64,000 nt of DNA from an uncultured Thermoplasmatales archaeon (GTDB lineage Archaea; Thermoplasmatota; E2; DHVEG-1). Both the position numbers and the translations under genes were made by a program. Within the stretch, counting starts at the first letter, position 1. Each line of letters opens with the position of its first letter. The notes beneath the pieces were generated by a model. The model was not told the origin of the DNA, did no database searches, and saw only the letters and a program-made list of their open reading frames with translations. Positions 18,821 to 40,028 of this stretch are shown here, piece after piece. Location: contig CAZTFR010000002.1 of the NCBI GenBank assembly GCA_964612945.1, forward strand, positions 7,497-71,496. The letters run 5' to 3'.

Positions 18821-19927
18821 ATGAAAGTTGCGATGCTCGGCTGGGAATATCCCCCATTCAAAGTGGGAGGGTTAGGAACTCATTGTTATGGGTTGACTCG
18901 AAGTCTTGCTGATAAAGAGATCCATGTCGATTTTTATATGCCGAAAACCAAGCATCGCGCCAAAAGTGATAATGATCATTTGAAGATTATTGAAGTTGGT
19001 GAAACCGAGATTTTTCCCTATGATAGACCTGAGGATAAAGCGCTTGCGGGTCATTTTTTTGAAAGTGTTCACCGGTATAATGAGCTGCTGGTACAGAGGG
19101 TAAAAGGGACCTATGATATGGTTCATGCCCATGATTGGTTGACCATGGAGGCCGGTGTTGGCATCAGCGAAAAAGTAGGTATTCCTTTGGTGCTCACGGT
19201 GCATTCGACCGAGTATGATCGGTCAGGGTGGTTGCATCCCAATGAATGGTTTATTTCTATGGAACGCCGGGGGATGCAGAAGGCGCAGCGTATCATCGCA
19301 GTCAGTGAGTTTACCAAGCGGGTGATTGTGGAAAAGTATGGGATCAACCCAGATAAGATTTCAGTGGTACATAATGCAGTATATCCGATTGGCCACGGCA
19401 AGAAGAAAAATATTGTACTGTTTCTTGGCAGGCTCACCATTCAGAAAGGTCCTGAGTTTTTTTTGAAAACTGCAAAGAAGGTTCTTGAGTATGAGGATAC
19501 CCATTTTGTGATGGCGGGTATGGGCGATATGCTGCCGCGTTTGATAGATCAAGCCGTTGAGTTGGGAATTGCAAATAGGATTATTTTTACCGGGAAGCTC
19601 ACTGAAGATGAGGTGAAACATATCTATAAGCTATCCAGTGTGTATGTGATGCCATCGGTCAGTGAGCCGTTTGGCATTACCGCGCTTGAAGCAATATCTG
19701 CAGGGACGCCCACGATTGTTTCCAAAACTGCAGGTGTATCTGAGGTATTTCAGAATTGTTTAAAGGTTGATTTTTGGGATACTGATGAGATGGCAAATAA
19801 GATTATTGCGCTGCTTCGGTATCAGCCGTTACATAAGACGATGCAGGAGAATTCGCAAAAGGAGATCGATTTATTTACCTGGGATCGTGTCGCTGATCGG
19901 ACCATTGACGTCTACAAAGAGGTTTAG
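18821..19927 (+). CDS. GlgA-like glycosyltransferase (archaeal glycogen/alpha-glucan synthase family), short form
   Basis: MKVAMLGWEYPPFKVGGLGTH N-terminus, as in archaeal glycogen synthases; EX7E motif SEPFGITALEAISAGTP. Confidence 0.6.
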   Translation: MKVAMLGWEYPPFKVGGLGTHCYGLTRSLADKEIHVDFYMPKTKHRAKSDNDHLKIIEVGETEIFPYDRPEDKALAGHFFESVHRYNELLVQRVKGTYDMVHAHDWLTMEAGVGISEKVGIPLVLTVHSTEYDRSGWLHPNEWFISMERRGMQKAQRIIAVSEFTKRVIVEKYGINPDKISVVHNAVYPIGHGKKKNIVLFLGRLTIQKGPEFFLKTAKKVLEYEDTHFVMAGMGDMLPRLIDQAVELGIANRIIFTGKLTEDEVKHIYKLSSVYVMPSVSEPFGITALEAISAGTPTIVSKTAGVSEVFQNCLKVDFWDTDEMANKIIALLRYQPLHKTMQENSQKEIDLFTWDRVADRTIDVYKEV

Positions 19928-21120
19928 TGGGTATGCCTTCGGTGTGTTGTTATTTTGAGGTTCATCAACCGATGAGATTGAACCGTTTTTCGGTGTTTAA
20001 CATTGGAAAAAAGGATGATGCATTTACTACCTATTTTGATCATAGTTTAAATGAGGAGATTTTTCATAAGGTTGCCACCAAGTGTTATCTTCCTACCAAT
20101 CGGCTTTTACTTGATTTAATCAAAGAAACCCGGGGTGCATTTCGTCTCTCGTTTAGCCTTACCGGGACCTTTGTGGAGTATTGTGAGCGGTTTATGCCTG
20201 AGGTTTTAGACTCTTTTAAGGAGTTGTTTCGCACGGGTGCGGTGGATTTTATTGAGGAAACCTATTATCATTCCTTGTCATCGTTGTACGAACAGCTTGA
20301 TGAATTCGAGGATCAAGTTCGGCTGCACGGTCAGCTGATGAAGGAGCTTTTTAATTATCAACCACGAGTATTTCGAAATACTGAGGCAATTTATGATAAT
20401 CGTATCGCACAGAAAGTGGCAGATCTTGGCTATGAAGGAATTATTACGGAGGGATCCACCAAGATTTTGGATTGGCGATCTCCAAATTATTTGTATAAAC
20501 CAGTGAATGCTGATATTAAGGTATTGATGCGTAATTATAATCTCAGTGATGATGTAGGGTTTCGTTTTTCATCCTGCAACTGGCCGGGATTTCCTTTAAC
20601 TGCTGAAAAGTATGCTTCATGGATGGCACAGAGCACCGGTGATATCATCAATATTTTCATTGATTATGAGACCTTTGGGGAGCATCAATGGACAGAAACC
20701 GGTATCTTTGATTTTCTAAAACGCTTTCCCCATGAAGTACTCAACTATGAACATCTTGATTTTGTTACCGTAAGTGAAGCAGTGGATCGCTTTCAGCCTC
20801 GAGGCGAAATTGATGTGCCCACCGCGATTTCTTGGGCAGATGAAGACCGGGATGTTTCCACCTGGCTTGGAAATGACATGCAGATTGCCTGTTTCAACGA
20901 ACTCAAAGACATCGGACAAAAAATCCGGCAGCAACACCAACCAGAACTTACAAAAATCTGGCGACTCCTGCAGACCTCTGATCATCTCTACTATGTGTCC
21001 ACTAAAGGCTTTGAGGATGGAACCGTGCATGCCTACTTCAGTCCATACGAGGTCCCTTATGAAGGATTTATCAACTACATGAATATTCTTCAGGATCTCA
21101 AACAACGAATATTTTCATAA
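19927..21120 (+). CDS. Glycoside hydrolase family 57 protein (alpha-glucan active)
   Basis: 397 aa with GH57-like N-terminal catalytic region; overlaps the preceding stop. Confidence 0.55.
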   Translation: MGMPSVCCYFEVHQPMRLNRFSVFNIGKKDDAFTTYFDHSLNEEIFHKVATKCYLPTNRLLLDLIKETRGAFRLSFSLTGTFVEYCERFMPEVLDSFKELFRTGAVDFIEETYYHSLSSLYEQLDEFEDQVRLHGQLMKELFNYQPRVFRNTEAIYDNRIAQKVADLGYEGIITEGSTKILDWRSPNYLYKPVNADIKVLMRNYNLSDDVGFRFSSCNWPGFPLTAEKYASWMAQSTGDIINIFIDYETFGEHQWTETGIFDFLKRFPHEVLNYEHLDFVTVSEAVDRFQPRGEIDVPTAISWADEDRDVSTWLGNDMQIACFNELKDIGQKIRQQHQPELTKIWRLLQTSDHLYYVSTKGFEDGTVHAYFSPYEVPYEGFINYMNILQDLKQRIFS

Positions 21121-21163
21121 ACATAGACTGCATACCCTTTGTTTTGAGGAGAGAGCACACACA

Positions 21164-22441
21164 ATGAAAATTGCACATTTCTCATGGGAATACCCTCCAG
21201 TTTTATATGGCGGTCTGGGAACCTTTGCCATGGAGATGACCCAAAAGCAGGCAGAGCTGGGTCATCACGTCACGGTATTATCCCTAAACGAGGCAAACAA
21301 ATACCCTGTCGAAGAATCCAAACACAATATCAACATCTATCGCCCTCGCATGGTCAACTACAAGGATGTGCTGTCGCTGTGTGTCTCTGAAAATCTACGC
21401 CGCTGGGGTGAACATTTTCAATTCTTCTCCGATGTACTCAGCTATAATTTTCTTGCCGCCGATACCTTTGTCAGCACCTTACTGCAGAAAAAAAGGCAAA
21501 CCTTTGATCTTATTGATGCCCATGACTGGCTCGGCGTCCTCGCAGGAATTGTGGCCAAAAAAGAAACACAGCTTCCTCTCGTCTTTCATATTCATTCCAC
21601 CGAGACCGGACGATCCCTTGGCGGTGGATCTGCAACCATCAAAGACATCGAACAAAAAGGTGGAGAAACCGCCGATTGCATCATCACCGTATCCCATGCC
21701 ATGAAAGAGGAGCTCATTGAGCTCGGATTTCCAAAAGAAAAAATCCAGGTCTGTTGGAACGCAGTCGATCCAGAAAAATACAAACCGGAAACCATCACAC
21801 CTGAAGAAAAAGCACAGCTACGCAAACGCTACGGTGTCGCAGAGCATGAAACCGTCATCTTTTTTGTAGGAAGACTAGTCACCGTCAAAGGCGTAGACAA
21901 ACTCGTCGAGGCTATGCCGGAGATACTCGCAGAATACCCTGAGACGAAACTGGTGATTCTTGGCATCGGTGACATGGAACAAGACCTTCGCATGCATGCA
22001 GCATCAGCAGGGATAGAGGATCATATCATCTTCCGATCTGAATTTGTCTCCGAACACGAACGCATCAGACATTTCGCCTTTGCCGACGTGGTCGTACTCC
22101 CCTCCCTATATGAGCCCTTCGGCATCGTCTGCACCGAAGCGATGGCCATGGCAAAACCCGTCGTCGTCGGCGCACGAGGAACCAACGGCATGCGCGAACA
22201 AATCATCCCCTCAGGAAAAAACCAATGCGGCATACATATCAACCCCTATGATCCCTCGGATATCGCCTGGGGAATCAACCAAATCCTTGCCATTCCTGAC
22301 AAAGGCAAACAGATGGGTCTAAACGCCCGTAAGCGCGTCCTGCAGGAGTTCACCTGGGATATCATCGCCAAAAAAACACTTTCTATCTACCAGCAAACAA
22401 TCAACAAAACAACCCCTATGGTAACCCAGAAGATATCATGA
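21164..22441 (+). CDS. GlgA-like glycosyltransferase (glycogen/alpha-glucan synthase family)
   Basis: MKIAHFSWEYPPVLYGGLGTF N-terminus, paralogous to 18821..19927; EX7E motif YEPFGIVCTEAMAMAKPVV. Confidence 0.6.
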   Translation: MKIAHFSWEYPPVLYGGLGTFAMEMTQKQAELGHHVTVLSLNEANKYPVEESKHNINIYRPRMVNYKDVLSLCVSENLRRWGEHFQFFSDVLSYNFLAADTFVSTLLQKKRQTFDLIDAHDWLGVLAGIVAKKETQLPLVFHIHSTETGRSLGGGSATIKDIEQKGGETADCIITVSHAMKEELIELGFPKEKIQVCWNAVDPEKYKPETITPEEKAQLRKRYGVAEHETVIFFVGRLVTVKGVDKLVEAMPEILAEYPETKLVILGIGDMEQDLRMHAASAGIEDHIIFRSEFVSEHERIRHFAFADVVVLPSLYEPFGIVCTEAMAMAKPVVVGARGTNGMREQIIPSGKNQCGIHINPYDPSDIAWGINQILAIPDKGKQMGLNARKRVLQEFTWDIIAKKTLSIYQQTINKTTPMVTQKIS

Positions 22442-24297
22442 AAGAATGGATTGTAACAAACGGACTCGGCAGCTACGCCTCTCTGACTACGGATCATAAA
22501 AACACCCGAAAATTCCACGGGCTTCTCATCGCAAGCCTGAGACCACCCACACAACGGTGGATGTTTCTCTCCAATCTGTTTGAAACTCTGGTCACAAAAG
22601 AAGCAACCGTTCAGCTTCAACAAACACCCAGTCAGTTCAGCTTTAACCACTTCCCTCGCATCACCTATACCTTGCCCTCATGCACGCTCACCAAAACCGT
22701 TGTCATGCCTCATGATCAGAACACCGTACTTCTCCGCTACGATATCAATACAGACAAACCTGTCACCCTTCTGCTAAAACCAGTGATAAACTCTCGGCAT
22801 TTTTATGATACTACAACACCTGAAGCATTCTCTGTTGATCAACACCACTACAAAAACGGCATCACACTCACCCCCAGCAACATCGATAAAAAACTCCATA
22901 TCACTCTACCTGATGCCACCTATCAACCACATGGTGTATGGATACAGACCTATTATCAAAAAGACCATTATCGAAAAGAAAGCTGTATTGACTTCAACTA
23001 TATCTCCGGAGAATTTCAGAAGCAGATCACCGGTTCTTGCTCCTTTGATCTTCTCTGCACGTTAGAAGATGAAGTTGCTTTACCTGATTCTCTTTTTATA
23101 AATGAACAACAACGAAAAAATACGCTTCTTACCCAGGCAGATCTGCCAAAAGAATGTTCGCCACTGGTTCTTTCATCGGATCGCTTTATTGTGCAAAAAA
23201 ACTCGGGGAAATCCATTATTGCTGGTTATCATTGGTTTGCTGACTGGGGCCGAGACACCCTGATTGCGCTCCCAGGTCTCGCTCTAGTTCCCAAACGTTT
23301 TGGGGATGCAAAACAGATTCTTCATCAGTTCAGCAGCTACAGAAAGCAGGGGCTCATTCCTAATGCCTTTATGGATCGAGATTCAGAACCCGTCTATAAC
23401 ACTGTTGATGCCTCACTATGGTTTATCGATAGAGTCTATCAATATATGAAATATACAAATGACATGGAGACATTGCAGAAGATTTGGCCGGCACTCGCTG
23501 AAATCATCCAGTATTACACGCATGGCACCCTCTATGATATTCATATGGATACTGATTATCTCATATCACATGAAAAAGGACTCACCTGGATGGATGTCAA
23601 ACTTGACGAGTACTACCCTACCCCCCGGGCATACAAAGCAGTAGAAATTCAGGCTCTCTGGTACAATGCACTGCAGATTATGAGCCAGTTTGCCCGCATT
23701 CTTGATAAAGAAGACATCTATCACGAACTTGCTGTACAAGTAAAAGATCACTTTGCCAAGGCCTACGATCAAAATTATGATGTTCTTGATTCGAAAGACT
23801 GCAGCATCCGACCGAATCAAATCTTTTTAGTCTCTCTTGATTTTTCAATGATTCCAGATAGCAGAAAGCAGCAGGTCGTATCAACGGTTCAAAACCATCT
23901 TCTTACGCCCTTTGGTCTTCGTTCACTTGCTCCATCTGATCCAAACTATAAAGGAACCTATCTTGGTCCGTATAACCGTGATGAAGCCTATCATAATGGG
24001 ACGGTGTGGGCCTGGCTTCTTGGACCCTTTGTGACTGCGTATGTGAAAATCCATAAACACACCGCCTCTGCACGAAATGATGCATATGAAGAGTTTCTCC
24101 AGCCGATGTTTCAGATTTTTGGTGATGAGTGGGATGGCAGCATTTATGAAATTTTTGATGGAAATCCGCCATTCATCCCCCGAGGGTGTATCTCTCAAGC
24201 GTGGAGTGTCGCAGAGATCTTACGCTGTTGGGTGGAAGATATTAAAAATATTCGGCCCGAATATGAGGACCTTTTTTTACATAAAATACGCGTTTAA
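22438..24297 (+). CDS. Amylo-alpha-1,6-glucosidase / archaeal-type glycogen debranching enzyme (GDE_C, six-hairpin glycosidase)
   Basis: 619 aa; GYHWFADWGRDT motif typical of the GDE_C family; 4-nt overlap with the upstream GT. Confidence 0.6.
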   Translation: MKEWIVTNGLGSYASLTTDHKNTRKFHGLLIASLRPPTQRWMFLSNLFETLVTKEATVQLQQTPSQFSFNHFPRITYTLPSCTLTKTVVMPHDQNTVLLRYDINTDKPVTLLLKPVINSRHFYDTTTPEAFSVDQHHYKNGITLTPSNIDKKLHITLPDATYQPHGVWIQTYYQKDHYRKESCIDFNYISGEFQKQITGSCSFDLLCTLEDEVALPDSLFINEQQRKNTLLTQADLPKECSPLVLSSDRFIVQKNSGKSIIAGYHWFADWGRDTLIALPGLALVPKRFGDAKQILHQFSSYRKQGLIPNAFMDRDSEPVYNTVDASLWFIDRVYQYMKYTNDMETLQKIWPALAEIIQYYTHGTLYDIHMDTDYLISHEKGLTWMDVKLDEYYPTPRAYKAVEIQALWYNALQIMSQFARILDKEDIYHELAVQVKDHFAKAYDQNYDVLDSKDCSIRPNQIFLVSLDFSMIPDSRKQQVVSTVQNHLLTPFGLRSLAPSDPNYKGTYLGPYNRDEAYHNGTVWAWLLGPFVTAYVKIHKHTASARNDAYEEFLQPMFQIFGDEWDGSIYEIFDGNPPFIPRGCISQAWSVAEILRCWVEDIKNIRPEYEDLFLHKIRV

Positions 24298-25992
24298 AAC
24301 GTATTGCTGTATCATGCGGTTGGTGTTAAAAAATGAGGCATTAATAGCGATGCAGCTGCGCATGGTGCGTATCCAGTTGTCTCGGTCGGTGTAGAATTTT
24401 GGTATGATCCAGTTTTCCAGTTTGTTGTAGAGATCATTCCGATCGATTTCATCATCTGATGCTTCTTCTTGGGTTTTTTCAGGGCCGATGGACCAACCGG
24501 TGATGTTTTCGATGCAGCCTTCAAGCCACCAGCCGTCCAGGGTGCTGAACTGGGGAACACCGTTGTGTGCGGCTTTCATGCCTGATGTTCCTGATGCTTC
24601 ATAGGGACGTCGGGGTGTGTTGAGCCAGAGGTCGACGCCTGAGGTCATAAGTTTTGCAATGGTGATATCGTAGTTGTGGATGTAGGCGATTTTTACGTTG
24701 CCCTTGATGGTTTTCATGGTTTCAAAGATTTTTTTGATGGTTTGTTTTCCTGAGGTATCCTTTGGGTGTGCTTTTCCTGCGTAGATGATTTGTATGGACC
24801 CGACTCGTTCTGCGATTTCTGAGATGCGGTTGGGATCTGAAATTAAAAGATCAGGTCGTTTGTAGGCGGTTTGTCTCCGTGCAAATCCGATAGTGAAATG
24901 ATCGTAGTTCATGCCGACGTTGTAGCGGCTGTTGACAAAGTCAATAAGGTTTTTTTTGGCTTCCATGTGTGCATTCCAGACTTCTTCTTTGTCCATGCTG
25001 AATGCAGATCGGAGGATGTAGGGGTCTGATCGCCAGCCGGGCATATGTTTGTCGAAGAGTCGTTGGAAGGGGTCTGATACCCAGGTGGTGGTGTGGACGC
25101 CGTTGGTGATGGAGTCGATGGAGTAACCGGGGAACATGAGTCGTGAGACTTCGCCGTGTTTTTTTGCAACGCCGTTGACGTAGTGGCTGAAGAAGAGGGC
25201 AAGTCGGGTCATGTTGAGTTTGTTTTCGAAGGTGATTTCATGGATGAGTGATTCGGGGAGGAGTTCGGCGATCATAGGTTTTGCAAAGGAGAGATCAAAT
25301 TGGTCGTGTCCGGCGGCGACAGGTGTGTGAGTGGTGAAGACGCAGCGTTGTCGTACTTGTTCGATGTCTTGGAGTTGTCGGTAGAGTTCGAGTGTCCCAA
25401 GGGCGGCGTGTCCTTCGTTCATGTGGTATTTGTCGATGGTTTCGTAGCCGAGTGCCTGGATTGCGCGTACACCGCCGACGCCGAGGATTATTTCTTGGCT
25501 GAGCCGGTATTTTTGTTCTCCTCCGTAGAGGTGTTTGGTGATTTCTCGGTCTTGTTCGCTATTTTCTTCAAGGTTGGTATCAAGAAAGAAGACGGGAACG
25601 ATGTAGTTGTTGATACCTGTGATGAGGTAGTACCAGATTTGGATGGCAACAGTTCGTCCTTCAATGGTCACATTTGTTTTGGTGGGAAGTAGGGTGAGAA
25701 AGTCGTTGATATTGAAGTTGATGGGTACTTCGATTTGGTTGCCGTCGTTGTCAATTTTTTGGTAGAAGTAGCCTTGTTCGGAGAGCAGGGTCATGCCGAC
25801 GATAGGAATGTTGAGATCGGCACAGGATTTAAGGATGTCTCCGGCAAGAACTCCGAGGCCGCCGCTATAGGTGGGAATGCGTTTGTCAAGGCCGATTTCC
25901 ATGGAGAAATAGGCGATTTTTGGGTGAACGTCCAATGGGGTTTCTTGTACTTGTACGCTTTCTTCTGTTTCTTCAACGGTTTCTGTTTCCAT
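24277..25992 (-). CDS. Alpha-glucan (glycogen/maltodextrin) phosphorylase, short GT35 type
   Basis: 571 aa; PLP-lysine region EASGTSGMKAAHNGV; convergent with the debranching enzyme gene. Confidence 0.7.
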   Translation of the reverse strand: METETVEETEESVQVQETPLDVHPKIAYFSMEIGLDKRIPTYSGGLGVLAGDILKSCADLNIPIVGMTLLSEQGYFYQKIDNDGNQIEVPINFNINDFLTLLPTKTNVTIEGRTVAIQIWYYLITGINNYIVPVFFLDTNLEENSEQDREITKHLYGGEQKYRLSQEIILGVGGVRAIQALGYETIDKYHMNEGHAALGTLELYRQLQDIEQVRQRCVFTTHTPVAAGHDQFDLSFAKPMIAELLPESLIHEITFENKLNMTRLALFFSHYVNGVAKKHGEVSRLMFPGYSIDSITNGVHTTTWVSDPFQRLFDKHMPGWRSDPYILRSAFSMDKEEVWNAHMEAKKNLIDFVNSRYNVGMNYDHFTIGFARRQTAYKRPDLLISDPNRISEIAERVGSIQIIYAGKAHPKDTSGKQTIKKIFETMKTIKGNVKIAYIHNYDITIAKLMTSGVDLWLNTPRRPYEASGTSGMKAAHNGVPQFSTLDGWWLEGCIENITGWSIGPEKTQEEASDDEIDRNDLYNKLENWIIPKFYTDRDNWIRTMRSCIAINASFFNTNRMIQQYVLNAYFM

Positions 25993-27894: not shown

Positions 27895-29103
27895 TTAGAG
27901 ATATTTTCGTACAGTAAGTGATGCGATATTGAAGTTTCCTGCGGTATCATAGGCGACGACATAGAGTGTTTTTTTATGGTTGGTTAGGATGGGTTGATTC
28001 CAAAGCCAGGTGTAAGGTTCGCTGTAGTCGGACCATTGCAGATTTGGGTTTCCTTCGATGTAGAAATCTACTTTTTCTATAGATGATTGAGTGTCGGTTG
28101 CGGTGGCTTGGATGGTAATTCTTCCAACGATAAGGGTGTGTTGTCTGATGACGAAGGGAAGGATGCGTCTGTCTCTGAGGTAGATGCCGTTTTGTGGTGA
28201 GGTGATGAGCAGGTAGGGTGGAGTGGTGTCTTGTGTTTCATGGGGGCTCATGAGCGGGTATTCATCTTGGTTTATACCGCCGGGGATGTCATAGGGTATG
28301 TCGCCGATGCCGTTGCCATCGGCGTCCAGGCCGGTGTAGTCGTCCCAATAGTTGCCTCTGTTGCGTATGGGATGATCCCAGAGGTTGTGTGCATTGTCAT
28401 AGGCATGGTGTCGGTTGGTAAGAAAGTTGTTTGAGTGGATGTTGTTATGGGAGCAGTCGGTGAGGTGTATTGCGGTGTAGCCGTTGTTTTGTAGGGTGTT
28501 ATTTTTGATGGTGTTTTGGGTGCTGCATGCTTGGAGTTGTATGCCGTTCCAGGTGTTATTTGCAATTGTTGCGTAGGTTATCGTGGTTTGATGTGTGTTG
28601 TGAAATGTGATGCCGTGGTAGTTGTGGTGCATTGTGCAGTGGGTGATCGTGGTATTTGTAGTATGGAGAAGGATGCCGGTGTTAGAGGGATATTGTCCAC
28701 TGTTTTGTATAGTGAAGTTTGCTATGGTACAGTGTGGTGCGAGGACAGTTACAGGGTTATGTGAGTGGTTGGCATCAATGATGGTTGTTGAGGTATCTTC
28801 CCCTGTTATGGTGAGTGTTTTGGTGACGGTGATGTATTCGCGGTAGGTTCCCGAGAAGACGAATATAGCATCGTAGGGGGTGGCGTTGGTGATGGCGTCT
28901 TGGATGTATTGAAAGGGGTGATTGAGGCTTCCATCCCAGGGGCCGACTGTGTTGTCATCGTCAACATAGAGTATACAGCAGGCGGCGTTCTGATGAGAAG
29001 AGAGATGAGAGGGTGTTGCAGAAAGCGGTACGAGAATGCTGCTACCTGCCAAAAAGAGGATCACTGCGAACAGTGTATAAGGGGTATTTTTGAGTGTAAT
29101 CAT
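27895..29103 (-). CDS. Secreted right-handed parallel beta-helix (NosD/pectin-lyase-fold) protein with C-terminal Ig-like module
   Basis: Signal peptide; many N/T/H-rich beta-helix rungs (NNTLQNNGYTAIHLTDCSHNNIHSNNF). The C-terminus (PPYLLITSP...PYTWLWN...AYDTAGN) is shared with the M14 and M28 proteins. Confidence 0.55.
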   Translation of the reverse strand: MITLKNTPYTLFAVILFLAGSSILVPLSATPSHLSSHQNAACCILYVDDDNTVGPWDGSLNHPFQYIQDAITNATPYDAIFVFSGTYREYITVTKTLTITGEDTSTTIIDANHSHNPVTVLAPHCTIANFTIQNSGQYPSNTGILLHTTNTTITHCTMHHNYHGITFHNTHQTTITYATIANNTWNGIQLQACSTQNTIKNNTLQNNGYTAIHLTDCSHNNIHSNNFLTNRHHAYDNAHNLWDHPIRNRGNYWDDYTGLDADGNGIGDIPYDIPGGINQDEYPLMSPHETQDTTPPYLLITSPQNGIYLRDRRILPFVIRQHTLIVGRITIQATATDTQSSIEKVDFYIEGNPNLQWSDYSEPYTWLWNQPILTNHKKTLYVVAYDTAGNFNIASLTVRKYL

Positions 29104-30438: not shown

Positions 30439-31680
30439 TTAGATATCCTCCCATTCTTTCAAGACTGATTCCCATTTATAATCCTTAATGCCTTTGATTT
30501 CTTCGATGCTTCGAATGATTTTTTCATAGCCACGTACTAGTGTTCGGGTTTGAATTTTTACGATGAAATCATAGGGTCCGGAGACTGCGGTAACCCGGGC
30601 GACTCCATTGATATTCCAGAGGTTCTGCATAATGTCATCAATTGAATACCCGGGTTTCATATGAATGAAAATATAGGCTTTTACCTGGGTGATTGCGTAG
30701 GAGACAATGCCAAGGACAATTAGGACGGTTCCAATGATTTTTAGAAGAATCATCACCGGGTCTGCAGAAACTGCAGGGGCAATAGCAAAATAGGACAAGA
30801 GAAGAGAGAGTGGGATGGTAAACAGAATGGTAGATGAGCGTACTGCTTGGGTCACACTTGCTTTTCCTATGCCAAGGGCGCGGATATAAAACACGTAGGA
30901 AAAAAAGGTAATTCCCATGCTGAGTGAGACAATGTTAACATGAGCAAATGCCTCCTGAAATCCCTCGATGAGATGGGTTGTTCCCATGAGTGCATCAAAG
31001 AGTATACTGATTCCAATAATAATGATACAGGAGAAGAGGACATTCCAAAAGCGGATGTTCATTGCGTCATTTGATCTTCGGTCAATTTTCAGGCGTTTCA
31101 GCTTCCGTTGGTAGATGGAAAAGAGCATCCATGCAGGGTTGACGACGAGAAACACAATCAGCATCGATTCAAGGGTGATCGTTCCAGTGAGACTAATGGA
31201 TCCCAGAAGGGCACCGAAGGTGACAATCATGGCTGATTGCACCTCAGGGAGCGTGGGGATATTTTTTTCCACCACTGATTCGATAAGTACAATGTAGAGA
31301 ATGGCGATTTGCGAAAAAGGAAGCACTGTTGAGGGATCACCCATCATTGACATTAAGGTGAGAAATCCAATAGTGAGAATGGCGTTTCCCACTCCGGCGA
31401 CAAGCTGATAGGAAATTTCTTCTTTTCGTATCAGTCGGAGACGCGTAAAGGAGGGATCGATATATCGTGCTCCCAGACTTTTTCCCTTCACTTTAAGAGA
31501 TAAGATGCTAATAAGCAGAAGCGAGATGGGAATTCCTACCAAGAAATTTGCCAGGGCAAACGCCCAGGCATTGGGGATAAATAAGGCAGAAATTGTGGCA
31601 TCAATGGTGGTCACAATAGATATTAAAATAGCAGAAGAAAATGCGAGCGCGTAAAAAAGATATTTTTTTCTTATTTTCAT
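30439..31680 (-). CDS. DMT/EamA-like 10-TM permease fused to a C-terminal Lrp/AsnC RAM ligand-binding domain
   Basis: 413 aa. ~10 hydrophobic helices are followed by AYIFIHMKPGYSIDDIMQNLWNINGVARVTAVSGPYDFIVKIQTRTLVRGYEKIIRSIEEIKGIKDY, a betaalpha-betabeta-alpha-beta RAM-domain pattern. Confidence 0.55.
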   Translation of the reverse strand: MKIRKKYLFYALAFSSAILISIVTTIDATISALFIPNAWAFALANFLVGIPISLLLISILSLKVKGKSLGARYIDPSFTRLRLIRKEEISYQLVAGVGNAILTIGFLTLMSMMGDPSTVLPFSQIAILYIVLIESVVEKNIPTLPEVQSAMIVTFGALLGSISLTGTITLESMLIVFLVVNPAWMLFSIYQRKLKRLKIDRRSNDAMNIRFWNVLFSCIIIIGISILFDALMGTTHLIEGFQEAFAHVNIVSLSMGITFFSYVFYIRALGIGKASVTQAVRSSTILFTIPLSLLLSYFAIAPAVSADPVMILLKIIGTVLIVLGIVSYAITQVKAYIFIHMKPGYSIDDIMQNLWNINGVARVTAVSGPYDFIVKIQTRTLVRGYEKIIRSIEEIKGIKDYKWESVLKEWEDI

Positions 31681-31916
31681 AGGGCGATTTCTTTTTCTAT
31701 GACATGAGTGGTGGTTTTTCGTACCCCCTCAATCATCTGTAGCTCTTCGGTCACTTTCAATAGTTTCTGAAGTGTGCGTACTTGCACGCGTACTACGATA
31801 TCATGTTCCCCGGCAACGATACTGATTTTACGAATATTTGATATTTTCCTCATCTGTCCGATTGCTTTATCGGTATTTCCGGGTTGCATGGCGATCATGA
31901 TATAGGCATGAATCAT
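31677..31916 (-). CDS. Stand-alone Lrp/AsnC-type RAM (ligand-binding) domain protein
   Basis: 79 aa: MIHAYIMIAMQPGNTDKAIGQMRKISNIRKISIVAGEHDIVVRVQVRTLQKLLKVTEELQMIEGVRKTTTHVI; 4-nt overlap (ATGA) with the permease start. Confidence 0.6.
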   Translation of the reverse strand: MIHAYIMIAMQPGNTDKAIGQMRKISNIRKISIVAGEHDIVVRVQVRTLQKLLKVTEELQMIEGVRKTTTHVIEKEIAL

Positions 31917-32045
31917 AGTCTTTTTTCACCTGTGATTTGAGGGCGAATATAGATGTCTCTTATAAATTTATGTATGTAATTTGATTTAATTTAGTTTCGT
32001 AGATAGCAATATGCTTATCAAAAACAATGTGTTTGTCGGTTATGC

Positions 32046-33752
32046 ATGGTCTCTGTTGCGATTCTTGATGGCTATGTCGATGAGCCGACCTGTCTTGGTG
32101 TACCACCCTATATAAGTCCGTATCCTCGGTATCTTGCAGGATCGGTGTATGCCTTTGATGCTCATGCGACGGTTCAATATGTAACGATTGATCAGCTTCG
32201 CATGCAACCCGCGCTTGGAAACAAGCTATCTGCATCTGATGTACTAGTTGTCATCGCAGGGATGCATGTGCCAGGGCGGTATCTCAGTGGGTATCCGGTC
32301 AGCCCTGGTGAGCTGCAGCGGTTTCTCCCCCGGATTTCTGGTCCCGTTAAAGTGCTTGCTGGCCCTGCGGCACAACGAGGATTTGGACTTGCTGGTGGAA
32401 AAAGAAGTGTGGACACGTCGACGCTTTCGCATCTCTTTGATGTCATTACCGTCGGTGACGGTGAAGCAGTTCTACCTGAGGTACTCTCAAGACTGCCTAT
32501 GATTGATTCTGTTGATTCCTCCCGCTGTCGCACACAAGATATGCTTCATGATTCTGCAGTAAAGGGTGCCTCTGTAGTCTCACAGCATCCCTTTTTCCCT
32601 TCATATCTTATCGCCGAAATTGAAACCTACCGCGGGTGTGCACGAAGTATTCGAGGCGGGTGCTCTTTTTGTAGTGAGCCATTGAAAGGATCACCACAGT
32701 TTCGCCCGATTCAGGATATTCTCGATGAAGTTTCCGCACTGTACCTCCAGAGGGTACGTCATTTTCGTCTGGGTAATCAACCCTGTCTTTTTAGTTATCT
32801 AGCCCATGATGCTCAGAAAAAAGAATTTCCGCGACCCAATCCAGAAGCACTTGAACAGCTATTTTCCGGTATCAGACAGGTCGCTCCTGATCTGAAAACA
32901 CTGCATATCGACAATGCAAACCCAAAGATTCTCTCCTTATATCCTGAGGAATGCACAAGGATTGCACAAACCATCCTTACCTATCATACTTCTGGTGATG
33001 TTGCTGCGTTTGGAGTGGAAAGCGTCGATCCAAAAGTCATCAAAGCCAATAATCTGAAGGCAAACCAGCAGGAGGTATTTGATGCAATAAGGCTCCTCAA
33101 CCATGTCGGCCGCAAACGTGGCAGCAATGGCCTCCCTGAGCTTCTTCCTGGGCTTAACTTTGTCTTCGGTCTTCAAGGTGAAACAAGGAAAACATTTGAT
33201 CTGAATCTTCAATTTCTTAAACAGATACGAAAACAAAACCTGCTTGTGCGAAGAATTAATCTCCGCCAGGTCATGCCACTACCCGGAACACCGATGAGCC
33301 GGTTTGGAGAAAAAAACATCCGCAAACACAAAGCATCATTCAAACAGTTCAAACGAACGGTTCGAGAGATCATTGATCGCCCCCTCCTCAAGCGGCTAAT
33401 CCCCGAAACAACAGTGCTTACTAATGTGTTCACAGAACTCTATCGTGGAAAAACAACCTTCGGACGTCAAATAGGAAGCTACCCCCTCCTCATAGGGATA
33501 CCAGGAATCCTTCCGCTTCATCAGTTCATCAACGTCAAAGTCATCGGATACGGCTATCGATCACTCACCGCGGTACCCTACCCCCTTGACATCAACACCA
33601 CCTCCCAAGAGACACTTACCGCCCTACCAGGAATTGGAAAAAAACGAGCCCTCCGAATCCTACGCAGCCGCCCCTACGAATCCACACAACAGCTGCTGCA
33701 AACACTGGATGATCCCACCGTTGCACAGACCTTGATGGAATACATAAACTGA
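32046..33752 (+). CDS. B12-binding-like / radical SAM protein (COG1031-type) with C-terminal helix-hairpin-helix
   Basis: 568 aa; N-terminal Rossmann-like B12-type domain; Cys cluster YRGCARSIRGGCSFCSE; C-terminal HhH LTALPGIGKKRALRILRSRP. Confidence 0.55.
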   Translation: MVSVAILDGYVDEPTCLGVPPYISPYPRYLAGSVYAFDAHATVQYVTIDQLRMQPALGNKLSASDVLVVIAGMHVPGRYLSGYPVSPGELQRFLPRISGPVKVLAGPAAQRGFGLAGGKRSVDTSTLSHLFDVITVGDGEAVLPEVLSRLPMIDSVDSSRCRTQDMLHDSAVKGASVVSQHPFFPSYLIAEIETYRGCARSIRGGCSFCSEPLKGSPQFRPIQDILDEVSALYLQRVRHFRLGNQPCLFSYLAHDAQKKEFPRPNPEALEQLFSGIRQVAPDLKTLHIDNANPKILSLYPEECTRIAQTILTYHTSGDVAAFGVESVDPKVIKANNLKANQQEVFDAIRLLNHVGRKRGSNGLPELLPGLNFVFGLQGETRKTFDLNLQFLKQIRKQNLLVRRINLRQVMPLPGTPMSRFGEKNIRKHKASFKQFKRTVREIIDRPLLKRLIPETTVLTNVFTELYRGKTTFGRQIGSYPLLIGIPGILPLHQFINVKVIGYGYRSLTAVPYPLDINTTSQETLTALPGIGKKRALRILRSRPYESTQQLLQTLDDPTVAQTLMEYIN

Positions 33753-33788
33753 TACATTAAAAAATGATGTCCGTATTTCACCTGTAGC

Positions 33789-34250
33789 ATGACCCTCAAA
33801 AACTATGAAATCTTAGAAGACGCCATAAACTATCATTTCACCAACAAGGCACTTCTTGAGGAGGCATTAACCCATAAAACCTATGCATTTGAGTCACCAA
33901 CACCGATTCAATATAACGAACGGCTCGAATTCCTTGGCGATAGCATCCTCAATTTCATCGTCGCCGAACAACTCTACAAAAGCAACCGCTACTTCTCCGA
34001 AGGAGAACTCACCCGACGACGTGCCTCTGGGGTCAACAATCGCTTCCTTGCAGATATCTCAAAAAAACTGGGAGTCGGTTCCTATCTCAACCTGGGACGA
34101 GGAGAAACCAAACAACATGGTGCAAAAAATAGAACCAATCTCGCCAACGCACTCGAAGCACTCATTGGCGCGATCTATTTGGACTCCGACATTGACACCG
34201 TCCGCGACTTTATTTTAGATACAATCTTTTCAAAACAATTTGTCTTTTAG
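33789..34250 (+). CDS. Mini-III-type ribonuclease III (catalytic domain only, no dsRBD)
   Basis: 153 aa with the RNase III signature ERLEFLGDSILNFIV and downstream acidic residues; too short for a dsRBD. Confidence 0.6.
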   Translation: MTLKNYEILEDAINYHFTNKALLEEALTHKTYAFESPTPIQYNERLEFLGDSILNFIVAEQLYKSNRYFSEGELTRRRASGVNNRFLADISKKLGVGSYLNLGRGETKQHGAKNRTNLANALEALIGAIYLDSDIDTVRDFILDTIFSKQFVF

Positions 34251-34500
34251 GTCACTAAAAACCGAATCGCACACCCTATTAGAAACACCACCGACAATGT
34301 GAGCAGATAAAACAGTGTCGTTTCCCATTTTTCATCGAGCAGTAACTGCACCCTTTCCTCACCACCACAGGAATTTTGTAGCAACAATAAATACTTTTCT
34401 ACTCATTTTACGACAGCTGACGAAAAAATAGAAAAATAAGCAAACGATAATGTATAATTAGGTAAAACACGATAACCTACTGTAGGAGCCGGATGCAACG

Positions 34501-37742: not shown

Positions 37743-40028
37743 ATGAAGAAAAGTGTAGTATTTTTCGTGGTCGTAGGAATCCTTATTGGCACAAGTTTTC
37801 TTGGATTTGCAGAAACGATACCTGATACATCTGCCGCTGTATCATCAGATGCGGCATCTGCATTGGTTCGCTTATATGTTGGTGATGATTTAAGCCGTGT
37901 CCCTCGTGAGTTTGAAAAGGTCGCCCGACATCCTGGGGAATCTGTTGATGTGATTCTGTCATCAGATCAGTTGGAAACTCTTGGTATGCGTGATGGTACC
38001 TATGAGGTGTTGATTTCTGATGTTGATGCCTATGATCGAACTGTTGCAGCTTCTTATCATAGCTTAGCAGAAACCGAGCAGATGCTTGCAGATATCGCTG
38101 ATGATTATTCGCAGATCACACAGTTGACTAGTCTTGGGAAATCCTATCAAGATCGGGATATCTGGTGTCTAGAAGTTTCTGATAACCCTGGTGTTGATGA
38201 GGGTGAGCCTGGTGTGGTCTTGTTGGGTCTTCATCATGCCCGTGAGTGGCCGAGTTTAGAGATTTGTTTGTATATCGCAGATACCTTGACCTCTGAGTAT
38301 GGATCAGATACCCAGTTGACCTCGCTTGTTGATTCCCGGCGGATTTGGATTGTTCCTTGTGTTAATCCTGATGGATACTACTATGATCATGATCAGGGCC
38401 ATGATTGGCGGAAAAACAGACATTATTTCCCAGAGTTTGGCACCTATGGTGTTGATTTAAACCGAAATTATCCGGGGTCCTGTAATGGTGATCCTACTGG
38501 ATCCTGGGGGTCTATTGGTATTGCCTCTGCGACTCATAACCCTGCGTATAGTACGTATTGTGGCCCAGGTCCGTTTTCAGAGTTGGAGACACAGGCAGTA
38601 CAACAGCTCTTTCTTTCAAACAATGTAAGTGCCTGTATCACCTGGCACACCTATTCTGAACTGGTTCTCTGGCCATGGGCATATTCTACTATTGCAAAAT
38701 CGCCGGATGATAGCTACATGAAACAAGTCGGTCAAGAAATTGCCTCACGGATTACTCGTCAGAGTGGATCTGGAACCTATACACCAAGTCAATCTTCAGG
38801 CTTATATCCTACGACGGGTGATACTACAGACTGGACCTATGGACATGCACATTATATCCTTGGTAGACCCACCTTTTCCTACACGATTGAGGCATGTTCC
38901 TCGTTTCATCCCTCTTCATCCTATCTTGATCAAATTGTATCAGAAAACTTTGATGGCGCACTTTACCTGTTAACGGAAGCTGAAAATATCCAACAGGTCG
39001 TCCCACGAGTTATTCCGCCACGGCTTCAGGATATTTCGTATAGTGAAACAGGTGATTACACCGTACAGTGGGAGGAGGTGAATCCTGCTGCTCAACCAGA
39101 TGTCTTTCAACTTGATGAACTGTCGGGTCTCTCGTATCATGTTGATGATGCTGAGACTCCCTCATCATACTGGGAGCTTGAGCGTTTTACTCTTTCAGAT
39201 GAACGAGCTCATTCTGGAGCACAGAGCTACCAATCACATCAGGGCAATGGCCGCATTTCCACGATGACCAGTATCATGCCACTTCCCATTCTGAATGTTA
39301 GCACGGTGAGTTTCTGGACCTGGTATAATATTGAGGAAAACTGGGATTTTGCCTTTTTTGAGGTAAGCAGAGAAGGCCGCTGTTTCGAAGTCATTGACTC
39401 CTACACGGGGTCCTCTGATGAATGGCAATACAAAGAGTATGATCTCTCTAAATATTATGGGGATTCTGTGTTTCTCCGATTCCGCTATTCCACCGATGAA
39501 GAAGTTACCGGGGAAGGATTTTATGTAGATGATATTTCCCCTCTTGCGCAGTTTGAAATAGTCGCCACTCTATCTGATACACTCACCACGGATTCCTATG
39601 AGATAACCGGAAGGCAAAATGGAACCTATTTCTATCGTATACGTGGAGAAAACAGCGAACACGGATGGGGTGATTTCAGCACCCTGCAATATGTATTAGT
39701 AGGAGATGCACAAGACACAGAACCTCCCTCTCTGACTCTGAGCAGACCGGCTCCGAATCGTCTCTATTTCAATAATCGAAATCTGCTTCCATTCTTTGCA
39801 ACAGTAATCATCGGTGAGATTACCATCGAAGCAGAAGCCTTTGACCCCTCAGGTATCAAAAAGGTAGAGTTTCTGATCAATGGCGACGTTCGGGAAACTG
39901 ATAGTACACCACCATACAACTGGACCTGGAAAGATAGTACCTTCTTAAAAAAGGAAATTAGCATACGTGCCAGTGATTATTTCGAAAACAATGCTGAGCA
40001 GCAAATTACTATCTGGAAATTCTTCTAA
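37743..40028 (+). CDS. Secreted zinc carboxypeptidase (peptidase M14) with long C-terminal extension ending in an Ig-like module
   Basis: Signal peptide; GLHHAREWPS zinc-ligand motif; C-terminal ~95 aa homologous to the C-termini of 27895..29103 and 43043..44350. Confidence 0.7.
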   Translation: MKKSVVFFVVVGILIGTSFLGFAETIPDTSAAVSSDAASALVRLYVGDDLSRVPREFEKVARHPGESVDVILSSDQLETLGMRDGTYEVLISDVDAYDRTVAASYHSLAETEQMLADIADDYSQITQLTSLGKSYQDRDIWCLEVSDNPGVDEGEPGVVLLGLHHAREWPSLEICLYIADTLTSEYGSDTQLTSLVDSRRIWIVPCVNPDGYYYDHDQGHDWRKNRHYFPEFGTYGVDLNRNYPGSCNGDPTGSWGSIGIASATHNPAYSTYCGPGPFSELETQAVQQLFLSNNVSACITWHTYSELVLWPWAYSTIAKSPDDSYMKQVGQEIASRITRQSGSGTYTPSQSSGLYPTTGDTTDWTYGHAHYILGRPTFSYTIEACSSFHPSSSYLDQIVSENFDGALYLLTEAENIQQVVPRVIPPRLQDISYSETGDYTVQWEEVNPAAQPDVFQLDELSGLSYHVDDAETPSSYWELERFTLSDERAHSGAQSYQSHQGNGRISTMTSIMPLPILNVSTVSFWTWYNIEENWDFAFFEVSREGRCFEVIDSYTGSSDEWQYKEYDLSKYYGDSVFLRFRYSTDEEVTGEGFYVDDISPLAQFEIVATLSDTLTTDSYEITGRQNGTYFYRIRGENSEHGWGDFSTLQYVLVGDAQDTEPPSLTLSRPAPNRLYFNNRNLLPFFATVIIGEITIEAEAFDPSGIKKVEFLINGDVRETDSTPPYNWTWKDSTFLKKEISIRASDYFENNAEQQITIWKFF

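Follow-up and report, generated by a model that had tools for sequence, protein, structure and literature searches.

What is a gene for a ribonuclease III (RNase III) domain doing immediately behind that of a radical S-adenosylmethionine (SAM) enzyme in an uncultured Thermoplasmatales archaeon, and do the two products serve the same RNA pathway? The question is raised by a 64,000-nucleotide (nt) stretch of contig CAZTFR010000002.1, the whole of which is referred to here as the window, in which the two genes follow one another:

32046..33752, + strand: COG1031 radical-SAM gene, 568 amino acids (aa)
33753..33788, + strand: spacer between the radical-SAM and RNase III genes, 36 nt
33789..34250, + strand: RNase III nuclease-domain gene encoding no domain for binding double-stranded RNA (dsRBD), 153 aa

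The reading favoured here, to which a probability of roughly 45% is given, is that the pair constitutes a lineage-specific two-gene cassette of uncultured Thermoplasmatota, the products of which would act in a shared RNA pathway. The observation that carries it is that the pair is selectively retained while the genes on either side turn over. Both open reading frames (ORFs), which share one reading frame, are real genes, to judge from the more than 100 homologues of each (55-75% identity). Their sizes, coordinates and 36-nt gap match exactly those given in a first-pass annotation made from the letters of the window, and the motifs quoted there were all located, at aa 197-209 (GCARSIRGGCSFC) and aa 527-539 (LPGIGKKRALRIL) of the radical-SAM protein and at aa 44-52 (ERLEFLGDS) of the nuclease.

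A scan for the nuclease in one genome per GTDB species returned 78 archaeal loci, and linkage was assessed in those with at least 1.8 kb of upstream sequence. In every one of these testable Thermoplasmatota species loci (69/69) the radical-SAM gene lies directly 5′ on the same strand, with a gap of less than 200 nt in 62 of them, so that the conservation of the two genes as neighbours in related genomes, a check put forward in the first-pass annotation, is borne out. Across these loci protein identity is 52-67% for the radical-SAM enzyme and 59-75% for RNase III; the next upstream gene (AsnC-type) is retained in 25/63 loci (40%) and the next downstream gene (CBS) in 7/59 (12%), and in one relative (L002) the neighbours differ on either side of an intact pair. 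Where both genes are present, the spacer measures 2-125 nt (typically 28-50 nt) in 69/76 loci. Among metagenome contigs found via the radical-SAM gene and with room for a second gene, 23/24 have the nuclease immediately 3′, and the sole exception retains only a disrupted N-terminus of the nuclease. On one metagenome contig an ORF (L109:1418-1816) begins like RNase III (MKKNTLNQLEKKLDYKF) but soon runs on into sequence unrelated to it, whether as a broken copy or as a chimera of the assembly. All told, ∼90 related genomes and contigs from metagenomes carry the pair. Between nuclease and radical-SAM gene, and between nuclease and a nearby peptidase, pairwise distances are correlated (r 0.87-0.89), and one ancient acquisition of the nuclease followed by vertical descent would fit.

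The closest homologues of both proteins are found in uncultured Thermoplasmatales and Thermoplasmatota metagenome-assembled genomes (MAGs), such as SG8-52, SM1-50, M11B2D, M9B1D, and UBA33. The genome names SG8-52, SM1-50, and M11B2D presumably denote the sediment MBG-D or 'Thermoprofundales' group. RNase III has been called absent from archaea (PMC8708148) or, where found there, 'sporadic' or 'accidental' (PMC3867540), some mesophilic Euryarchaeota having gained it by horizontal gene transfer (PMC4571572), and these reviews concur with the first-pass remark that it is not commonly reported in the domain. An Asgard Argonaute gene is flanked by a full-length rnc with dsRBD (PMC11217426). In the literature searched, nothing was found on RNase III in Thermoplasmatota, nor any report of a lineage-wide dsRBD-less archaeal RNase III, of the active-site asparagine variant described below, or of a partnership with COG1031. 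Because both proteins belong to known superfamilies, the novelty lies in a variant or an association and not in a new kind of system.

The 153-aa protein matches the Pfam families Ribonucleas_3_3 (PF14622; 115 bits, cut-off 35) and Ribonuclease_3 (PF00636; 84.6 bits, cut-off 27). The NCBIfam rnc equivalog TIGR02191 is matched at 157.4 bits, below its cut-off of 166.25, and over model positions 2-140 of 219 only, from which it follows that the protein is a nuclease domain without dsRBD; no such domain is encoded, the ORF stopping at aa 153 with no further ORF in the 250 nt downstream. Pfam and NCBIfam thus agree with the RNase III catalytic domain lacking a dsRBD that had been described from the letters. 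The AlphaFold2 (AF2) model (pLDDT 90.6) has the all-helical RNase III fold and matches 7r97, 2a11, and 3o2r with query-normalised TM-scores of 0.86-0.89, and its root-mean-square deviation is 1.5 Å to the Escherichia coli enzyme and 1.0 Å to that of Mycobacterium tuberculosis, with Campylobacter jejuni within 1.0-1.5 Å; sequence identity to these three nuclease domains is 36-39%. The best single-domain sequence match in the PDB is likewise 7r97 from E. coli (91.7 bits), followed by 2a11, 3o2r, and 1o0w, and the Dicer and Drosha domains rank after the bacterial enzymes among the fold matches. A special affinity to Drosha was considered and rejected, the top PDB E-value being the sum of two Drosha domains (70 + 54 bits), whereas per domain the bacterial enzyme scores 91.7 against 70.1. 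The nearest non-archaeal relatives found are Methylophilaceae rnc genes, which encode 224-aa proteins with a dsRBD at 43% identity and lie beside era. The nuclease domain also matches one PHROG, of unknown function.

By sequence and predicted fold, then, what remains after the loss of the dsRBD is a class-1 RNase III domain of canonical type. With class-1 rnc it has in common the nuclease domain, the NERLEFLGDS signature, the E/E/D/E/E residues and 39% identity to the E. coli enzyme; it differs in the missing dsRBD, in an Asn at the position of D114, in a family-wide 6-residue insertion ahead of the signature, in a conserved C-terminal F-x-F tail that ends the protein across the family, in its archaeal host, and in its location outside an rnc-era operon. 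In the window the aromatic tail, K-E-F-x-F, is encoded at 34239-34250 (aa 150-153), and a partner protein might dock on this short motif, which the whole nuclease family conserves.

The label 'Mini-III' given in the first-pass annotation holds for the architecture, since the one-domain, dsRBD-less arrangement is that of Mini-III (MrnC/YazC) from Bacillus, cyanobacteria, and chloroplasts, but not for family membership, the archaeal nuclease belonging to another sequence family and being closest to class-1 rnc in both sequence and fold. No Mini-III sequence in the PDB is matched at E<=10, the 50 best fold matches listed include no Mini-III structure, and hhalign returned a probability of 5% against Bacillus subtilis MrnC. 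The protein not being of the MrnC family, its dsRBD would therefore have been lost independently of Mini-III.

The radical-SAM protein is composed, in its AF2 model (pLDDT 81.8, pTM 0.84), of a Rossmann-like N-domain, a radical-SAM barrel, a five-stranded barrel, and a helical tail with a helix-hairpin-helix (HhH) motif:

32046..32600, + strand: Rossmann-like N-domain, aa 1-185, from predicted structure, with the family-invariant loop DGYVDEPxxLGVPPY
32637..32672, + strand: [4Fe-4S] motif C198-x7-C206-x2-C209 (CARSIRGGCSFC), CX7CX2C where the canonical form is CX3CX2C
33399..33584, + strand: five-stranded beta-barrel, TRAM-like, aa 452-513, from predicted structure
33585..33701, + strand: C-terminal HhH, ComEA-like HHH_3, aa 514-552, matched by Pfam HHH_3 and HHH

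The Pfam Radical_SAM model (PF04055) is matched at 29.9 bits, just above its cut-off of 29.5, over aa 192-373, and Radical_SAM_N2 weakly in the N-terminal domain. Neither the 61 close nor the 32 diverse family members compared depart from C198, C206, and C209, and no other Cys is invariant in the diverse alignment; relative to MgmA (9ccb, CX3CX2C) the cluster motif contains a 4-residue insertion. The barrel strands comprise residues 457-466, 469-475, 482-484, 494-502, and 506-511, the Pfam TRAM model giving no match to aa 452-513, and the HhH region is matched by the ComEA-related structure 2duy (E 1.2e-4). The Rossmann-like domain, radical-SAM core, and C-terminal HhH of the first-pass annotation are upheld, with the TRAM-like barrel now added between core and HhH.

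The best Foldseek match in the PDB is MiaB with RNA (7mjz, E 3e-16), followed by MgmA (9ccb), MtaB, and RimO, and further down by the cobalamin-dependent enzymes CysS, TsrM, and OxsB. The alignments to MiaB and RimO extend over ∼540 columns (target-normalised TM 0.65-0.69), a span over most of these proteins that fits inclusion of their TRAM domain. In the model a Rossmann-like N-domain comes first, then the radical-SAM barrel and a TRAM-like barrel, a succession that would be shared with MiaB, RimO, and MtaB (best structural matches 7mjz, 4jc0, and 9a6d), and the predicted architecture is that of this TRAM-containing RNA- or protein-modifying group. COG1031 differs from these enzymes in the missing auxiliary [4Fe-4S] Cys, in CX7CX2C rather than CX3CX2C, in the extra HhH, and in a TIGR00089 score of 17.9 against a cut-off of 251. 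As the N-terminal Cys triad of the auxiliary cluster, a feature of the UPF0004 domain, is missing, with no invariant Cys in aa 1-190 of the 32 diverse members, a canonical methylthiotransferase is ruled out, and the methylthiolation offered as an example in the first-pass annotation is unlikely.

The best sequence-level relatives are the cobalamin-dependent class B methylases (MgmA, i.e., the MJ0865 family, and the MJ1487 family), which also have a Rossmann-like N-domain; 9ccb is the best sequence match in the PDB as well as the second-best fold match. These methylases lack any TRAM-like or HhH domain and, as far as their substrates are known, act on proteins or small molecules, and the COG1031 protein scores far under the family cut-offs (TIGR04013, 63 bits against 251) and shows no Pfam B12-binding match. 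Cobalamin-dependent C-methylation by the COG1031 enzyme would be possible, and C-methylation is more likely than methylthiolation. RlmN and Cfr also combine a radical-SAM core with an HhH2 motif and act on rRNA or tRNA (bioRxiv 10.64898/2026.08.19.745780), although their HhH2 is N-terminal, their core subfamily and mechanism are others, and no sequence match between them and the COG1031 protein was detected.

COG1031 itself is widespread. The name that JGI gives to over 100 homologues matched along their full length (62-67% identity), 'radical SAM superfamily enzyme with C-terminal helix-hairpin-helix motif', is that of COG1031; at E<=1e-30 an exhaustive search of 1.8 billion cluster representatives gave only 182 clusters. 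More distant relatives, still full-length at 30-50% identity, were met in Methanolobus, Methanocorpusculum, Halovivax, Thermococci, Hodarchaeales, and Mesotoga, which with Synergistaceae represents the few bacteria among the named members; a third homologue search with a diverse profile returned the same lineage and added nothing. An older study counted COG1031 as one of the signature genes of archaea that Thermotoga also has (PMC2464742), and no paper on its function was found in the literature searched. In Halovivax gelatinilyticus, a 137-aa stand-alone TRAM-domain protein (L087:6972-7385) is encoded 3′ of the COG1031 gene on the same strand, a further hint that COG1031 deals with RNA.

It is proposed that a bacterial-type class-1 RNase III domain was gained once by horizontal transfer and thereafter inherited vertically, and that it lost its dsRBD while an Asp-to-Asn change became fixed at one metal ligand. 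The radical-SAM enzyme would bind structured RNA via its TRAM-like and HhH domains and modify an unactivated carbon through a 5′-deoxyadenosyl radical, and an RNase III homodimer would cut a double-stranded stem of the same RNA or ribonucleoprotein (RNP), for which pre-rRNA or pre-tRNA would be the obvious candidate. Because it has no dsRBD, the nuclease is probably directed to its substrate by a partner protein or by the context of an RNP, and the targeting partner could be the neighbouring TRAM-like and HhH domains. The 'modification plus processing module' of the first-pass annotation is in this sense what gene order would suggest; the RNA substrate, the shared pathway, and any physical interaction are inferred.

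Several observations weigh against such a cassette. COG1031 genes of at most 50% identity (from Methanolobus, Halovivax, a Thermococci MAG, and three other archaeal contigs) have no RNase III gene within 5-6 kb and no shared neighbour. Because the family is widespread in archaea without RNase III, the function of COG1031 cannot depend on the nuclease and, to judge from this distribution, is older than it and independent of it. The 69 linked loci descend from one acquisition and are not independent events. Unrelated genes are inserted between the two in 7/76 loci, which separates them by 400-2762 nt; the intervening genes are an opposite-strand nucleotidyltransferase/HEPN toxin-antitoxin system (three genomes), a C1 peptidase, and an 862-aa surface protein. 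Co-transcription is therefore dispensable in the seven interrupted loci. A mirror-tree comparison of 22 genomes gave a correlation of 0.887 for the radical-SAM and RNase III proteins against 0.84 and 0.874 for M29 peptidase controls; the pair correlation and the partial correlations are no higher than those of the controls and are uninformative about interaction. An RNA substrate, a conserved RNA structure, and an rRNA gene are all missing from the 64-kb window, the TRAM-like domain is a prediction from the structural model, and HhH domains can bind either DNA or RNA. The spacer, lastly, contains one of two AT-rich boxes at the locus:

32015..32024, + strand: AT-rich box TTATCAAAAA, 22-31 nt 5′ of the radical-SAM start codon
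33756..33765, + strand: AT-rich box ATTAAAAAAT in the spacer, 24-33 nt 5′ of the RNase III ATG

The first box is a candidate archaeal TATA box that may serve a leaderless or short-leader mRNA; across 66 related loci an AT-rich peak (80-90% A+T) occurs at -34..-24 of the radical-SAM start, often as AAGTTTTTTAAA. In the spacer, A+T likewise peaks at 84-94% at -36..-26 (50 related loci), and the window copy has no Shine-Dalgarno sequence in its 36 nt; a subset of related loci has instead a GAGG Shine-Dalgarno at -12..-6. The TATA-like box in the spacer is compatible with an independent, leaderless RNase III transcript.

In three of the interrupted loci an opposite-strand nucleotidyltransferase (MNT) gene is placed exactly between the pair (L044:1810-2580, L048:9497-10001, and L051:9238-10001), and in L044 and L051 a HEPN/DUF86 partner lies beside it, forming a toxin-antitoxin-like pair. 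A scan for bacterial-type promoters and terminators found no more sites than in shuffled sequence. A structured RNA or autoregulatory hairpin was also considered and was rejected, the spacer and the 250-nt gap downstream of RNase III giving folding z-scores of -0.59 and -0.01 against shuffles and no Rfam match. That non-coding gap (34251-34500), which separates RNase III from a CBS-pair gene, is unusually long and reaches ∼540-950 nt in three relatives (L004, L006, and L009); in the window copy it contains no ORF, Rfam match, or stable fold.

The activity of COG1031 without RNase III in all other archaeal lineages sampled, the single acquisition, the tolerated insertions, the box in the spacer, and the lack of excess co-evolution would all suit an adjacency that is historical only. 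An rnc fragment would have landed 3′ of a constitutive housekeeping gene and be kept there by dependence on a local promoter or read-through, or because rearrangement is rare, while the nuclease serves general decay of double-stranded or antisense RNA unrelated to the radical-SAM enzyme. This account is possible, if on balance unlikely. Against it stands the linkage itself: at the divergence given above, gene order is normally kept only for genes that function together, and the pair is intact in 69/69 loci while its flanks have been retained at 12% and 40%. The loss of the dsRBD, moreover, implies reliance on some partner.

Active-site residues of the nuclease lie in two motifs:

33915..33944, + strand: RNase III signature NERLEFLGDS, aa 43-52, in which E44, E47, and D51 correspond to E. 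coli E38, E41, and D45
34140..34163, + strand: second catalytic motif LANALEAL, aa 118-125, in which E123 corresponds to E. coli E117 and N120 replaces D114

In an alignment with the E. coli enzyme, the numbering and 39% identity of which agree with the 7r97 fold match, E44, E47, D51, E71, E106, and E123 align to E38, E41, D45, E65, E100, and E117. Among 102-104 archaeal copies E47, D51, E71, and E123 are invariant, E106 is retained in 101/102, and position 44 is E in 90 and D in 14. The catalytic acidic residues, the loss of which the first-pass annotation had named as the thing to look for, are thus present except at one metal-binding position, and include E47 and D51 of the signature and the C-terminal E123. 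The exception, on which the first-pass annotation did not remark, is N120, at the position of the metal-binding D114; it is Asn in 102/102 archaeal copies and Asp in both bacterial relatives, the nearest found. This invariant replacement would favour a catalytically impaired domain acting as a dsRNA-binding or scaffolding subunit, and for such non-catalytic RNase III-like proteins there is a precedent in maize RNC1 (PMC8708148). That explanation is nevertheless very unlikely, since four invariant acidic residues would be unexpected in a dead enzyme and Drosha RIIIDa has Asn in the same aligned column (MANCFEAL against LANALEAL). Drosha RIIIDa is an active nuclease domain, and Asn is still able to ligate Mg2+. 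Because of this active counterpart the D114-to-Asn change is compatible with catalysis, and the active site is apparently intact but variant.

It is highly improbable that the radical-SAM enzyme acts on DNA through its HhH and that the two genes make up a module for DNA/RNA hybrids or for genome maintenance, or else a system of defence, since the ComEA-type HHH_3 DNA-binding domain to which its C-terminus is most similar is set against an overall fold of the RNA- or protein-modifying MiaB/RimO group with a TRAM-like barrel, no match of either protein to the PADLOC defence models, a metabolic neighbourhood in the window (glycogen metabolism, peptidases, and an ABC transporter), and the fact that RNase III domains cut dsRNA.

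Within the favoured reading of a cassette with a shared RNA pathway, a more specific version has the RNase III dimer and the COG1031 enzyme forming a physical complex, in which the TRAM-like and HhH domains would replace the lost dsRBD and couple modification to cleavage of a precursor RNA, most plausibly pre-rRNA. This is improbable as it stands and is argued by analogy. Drosha needs DGCR8, and is likened here to the archaeal nuclease in that both would rely on a separate RNA-binding partner; Drosha RIIIDa shares the Asn at the Asp position of the second motif, but Drosha is a large eukaryotic protein with two fused RNase III domains and a dsRBD. Mini-III relies on ribosomal protein L3 for pre-23S rRNA (PMC3867540, PMC8708148), and like Mini-III the archaeal nuclease probably needs a protein or RNP partner. 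DGCR8 for Drosha and L3 for Mini-III are thus the models for the proposed replacement of the dsRBD.

Other genes in the vicinity of the pair were recorded. Divergently 5′ of the radical-SAM gene, at 30439-31916 (- strand), a 78-aa stand-alone AsnC/Lrp ligand-binding (RAM) protein overlaps by 4 nt with a 412-aa polytopic membrane protein that has the same RAM domain at its end, and this pair is accompanied by an M29 aminopeptidase gene; all of the RAM, membrane-protein, and M29 genes are found upstream in ∼30/76 related loci with both target genes. At 27895-29103 (- strand) is a secreted His/Thr/Asn-rich protein with beta-helix-like repeats, as judged by eye from the translation, and in one relative (L001) a NosD/Beta_helix gene lies directly 5′ of the radical-SAM gene. 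Large secreted peptidase-like genes near the pair, e.g., at 37743-40028, fit a protein-degrading lifestyle. A glycogen cluster occupies 18821-25992 and includes two GT4 glycosyltransferases, a GH57 enzyme, a debranching enzyme (GDE_N/GDE_C) and, on the opposite strand, a phosphorylase-like gene.

For the biology of these archaea, the findings describe an environmentally abundant lineage with a vertically inherited and strongly conserved RNase III, in which the loss of the dsRBD would be separate from that in Mini-III and the active-site variant resembles that of Drosha. For COG1031, an archaea-wide 'signature' radical-SAM enzyme, the partnership provides the first hint from gene context at what the enzyme does, and it points to structured RNA as its substrate. 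If the two proteins cooperate, they would represent a new way of giving a minimal RNase III its substrate specificity, and a rare instance in which the RNA metabolism of archaea has taken on dsRNA processing of bacterial type; were the physical complex to be real, this archaeal lineage would possess a bacterial-style rRNA processing route, beside or replacing that of the bulge-helix-bulge endonuclease.

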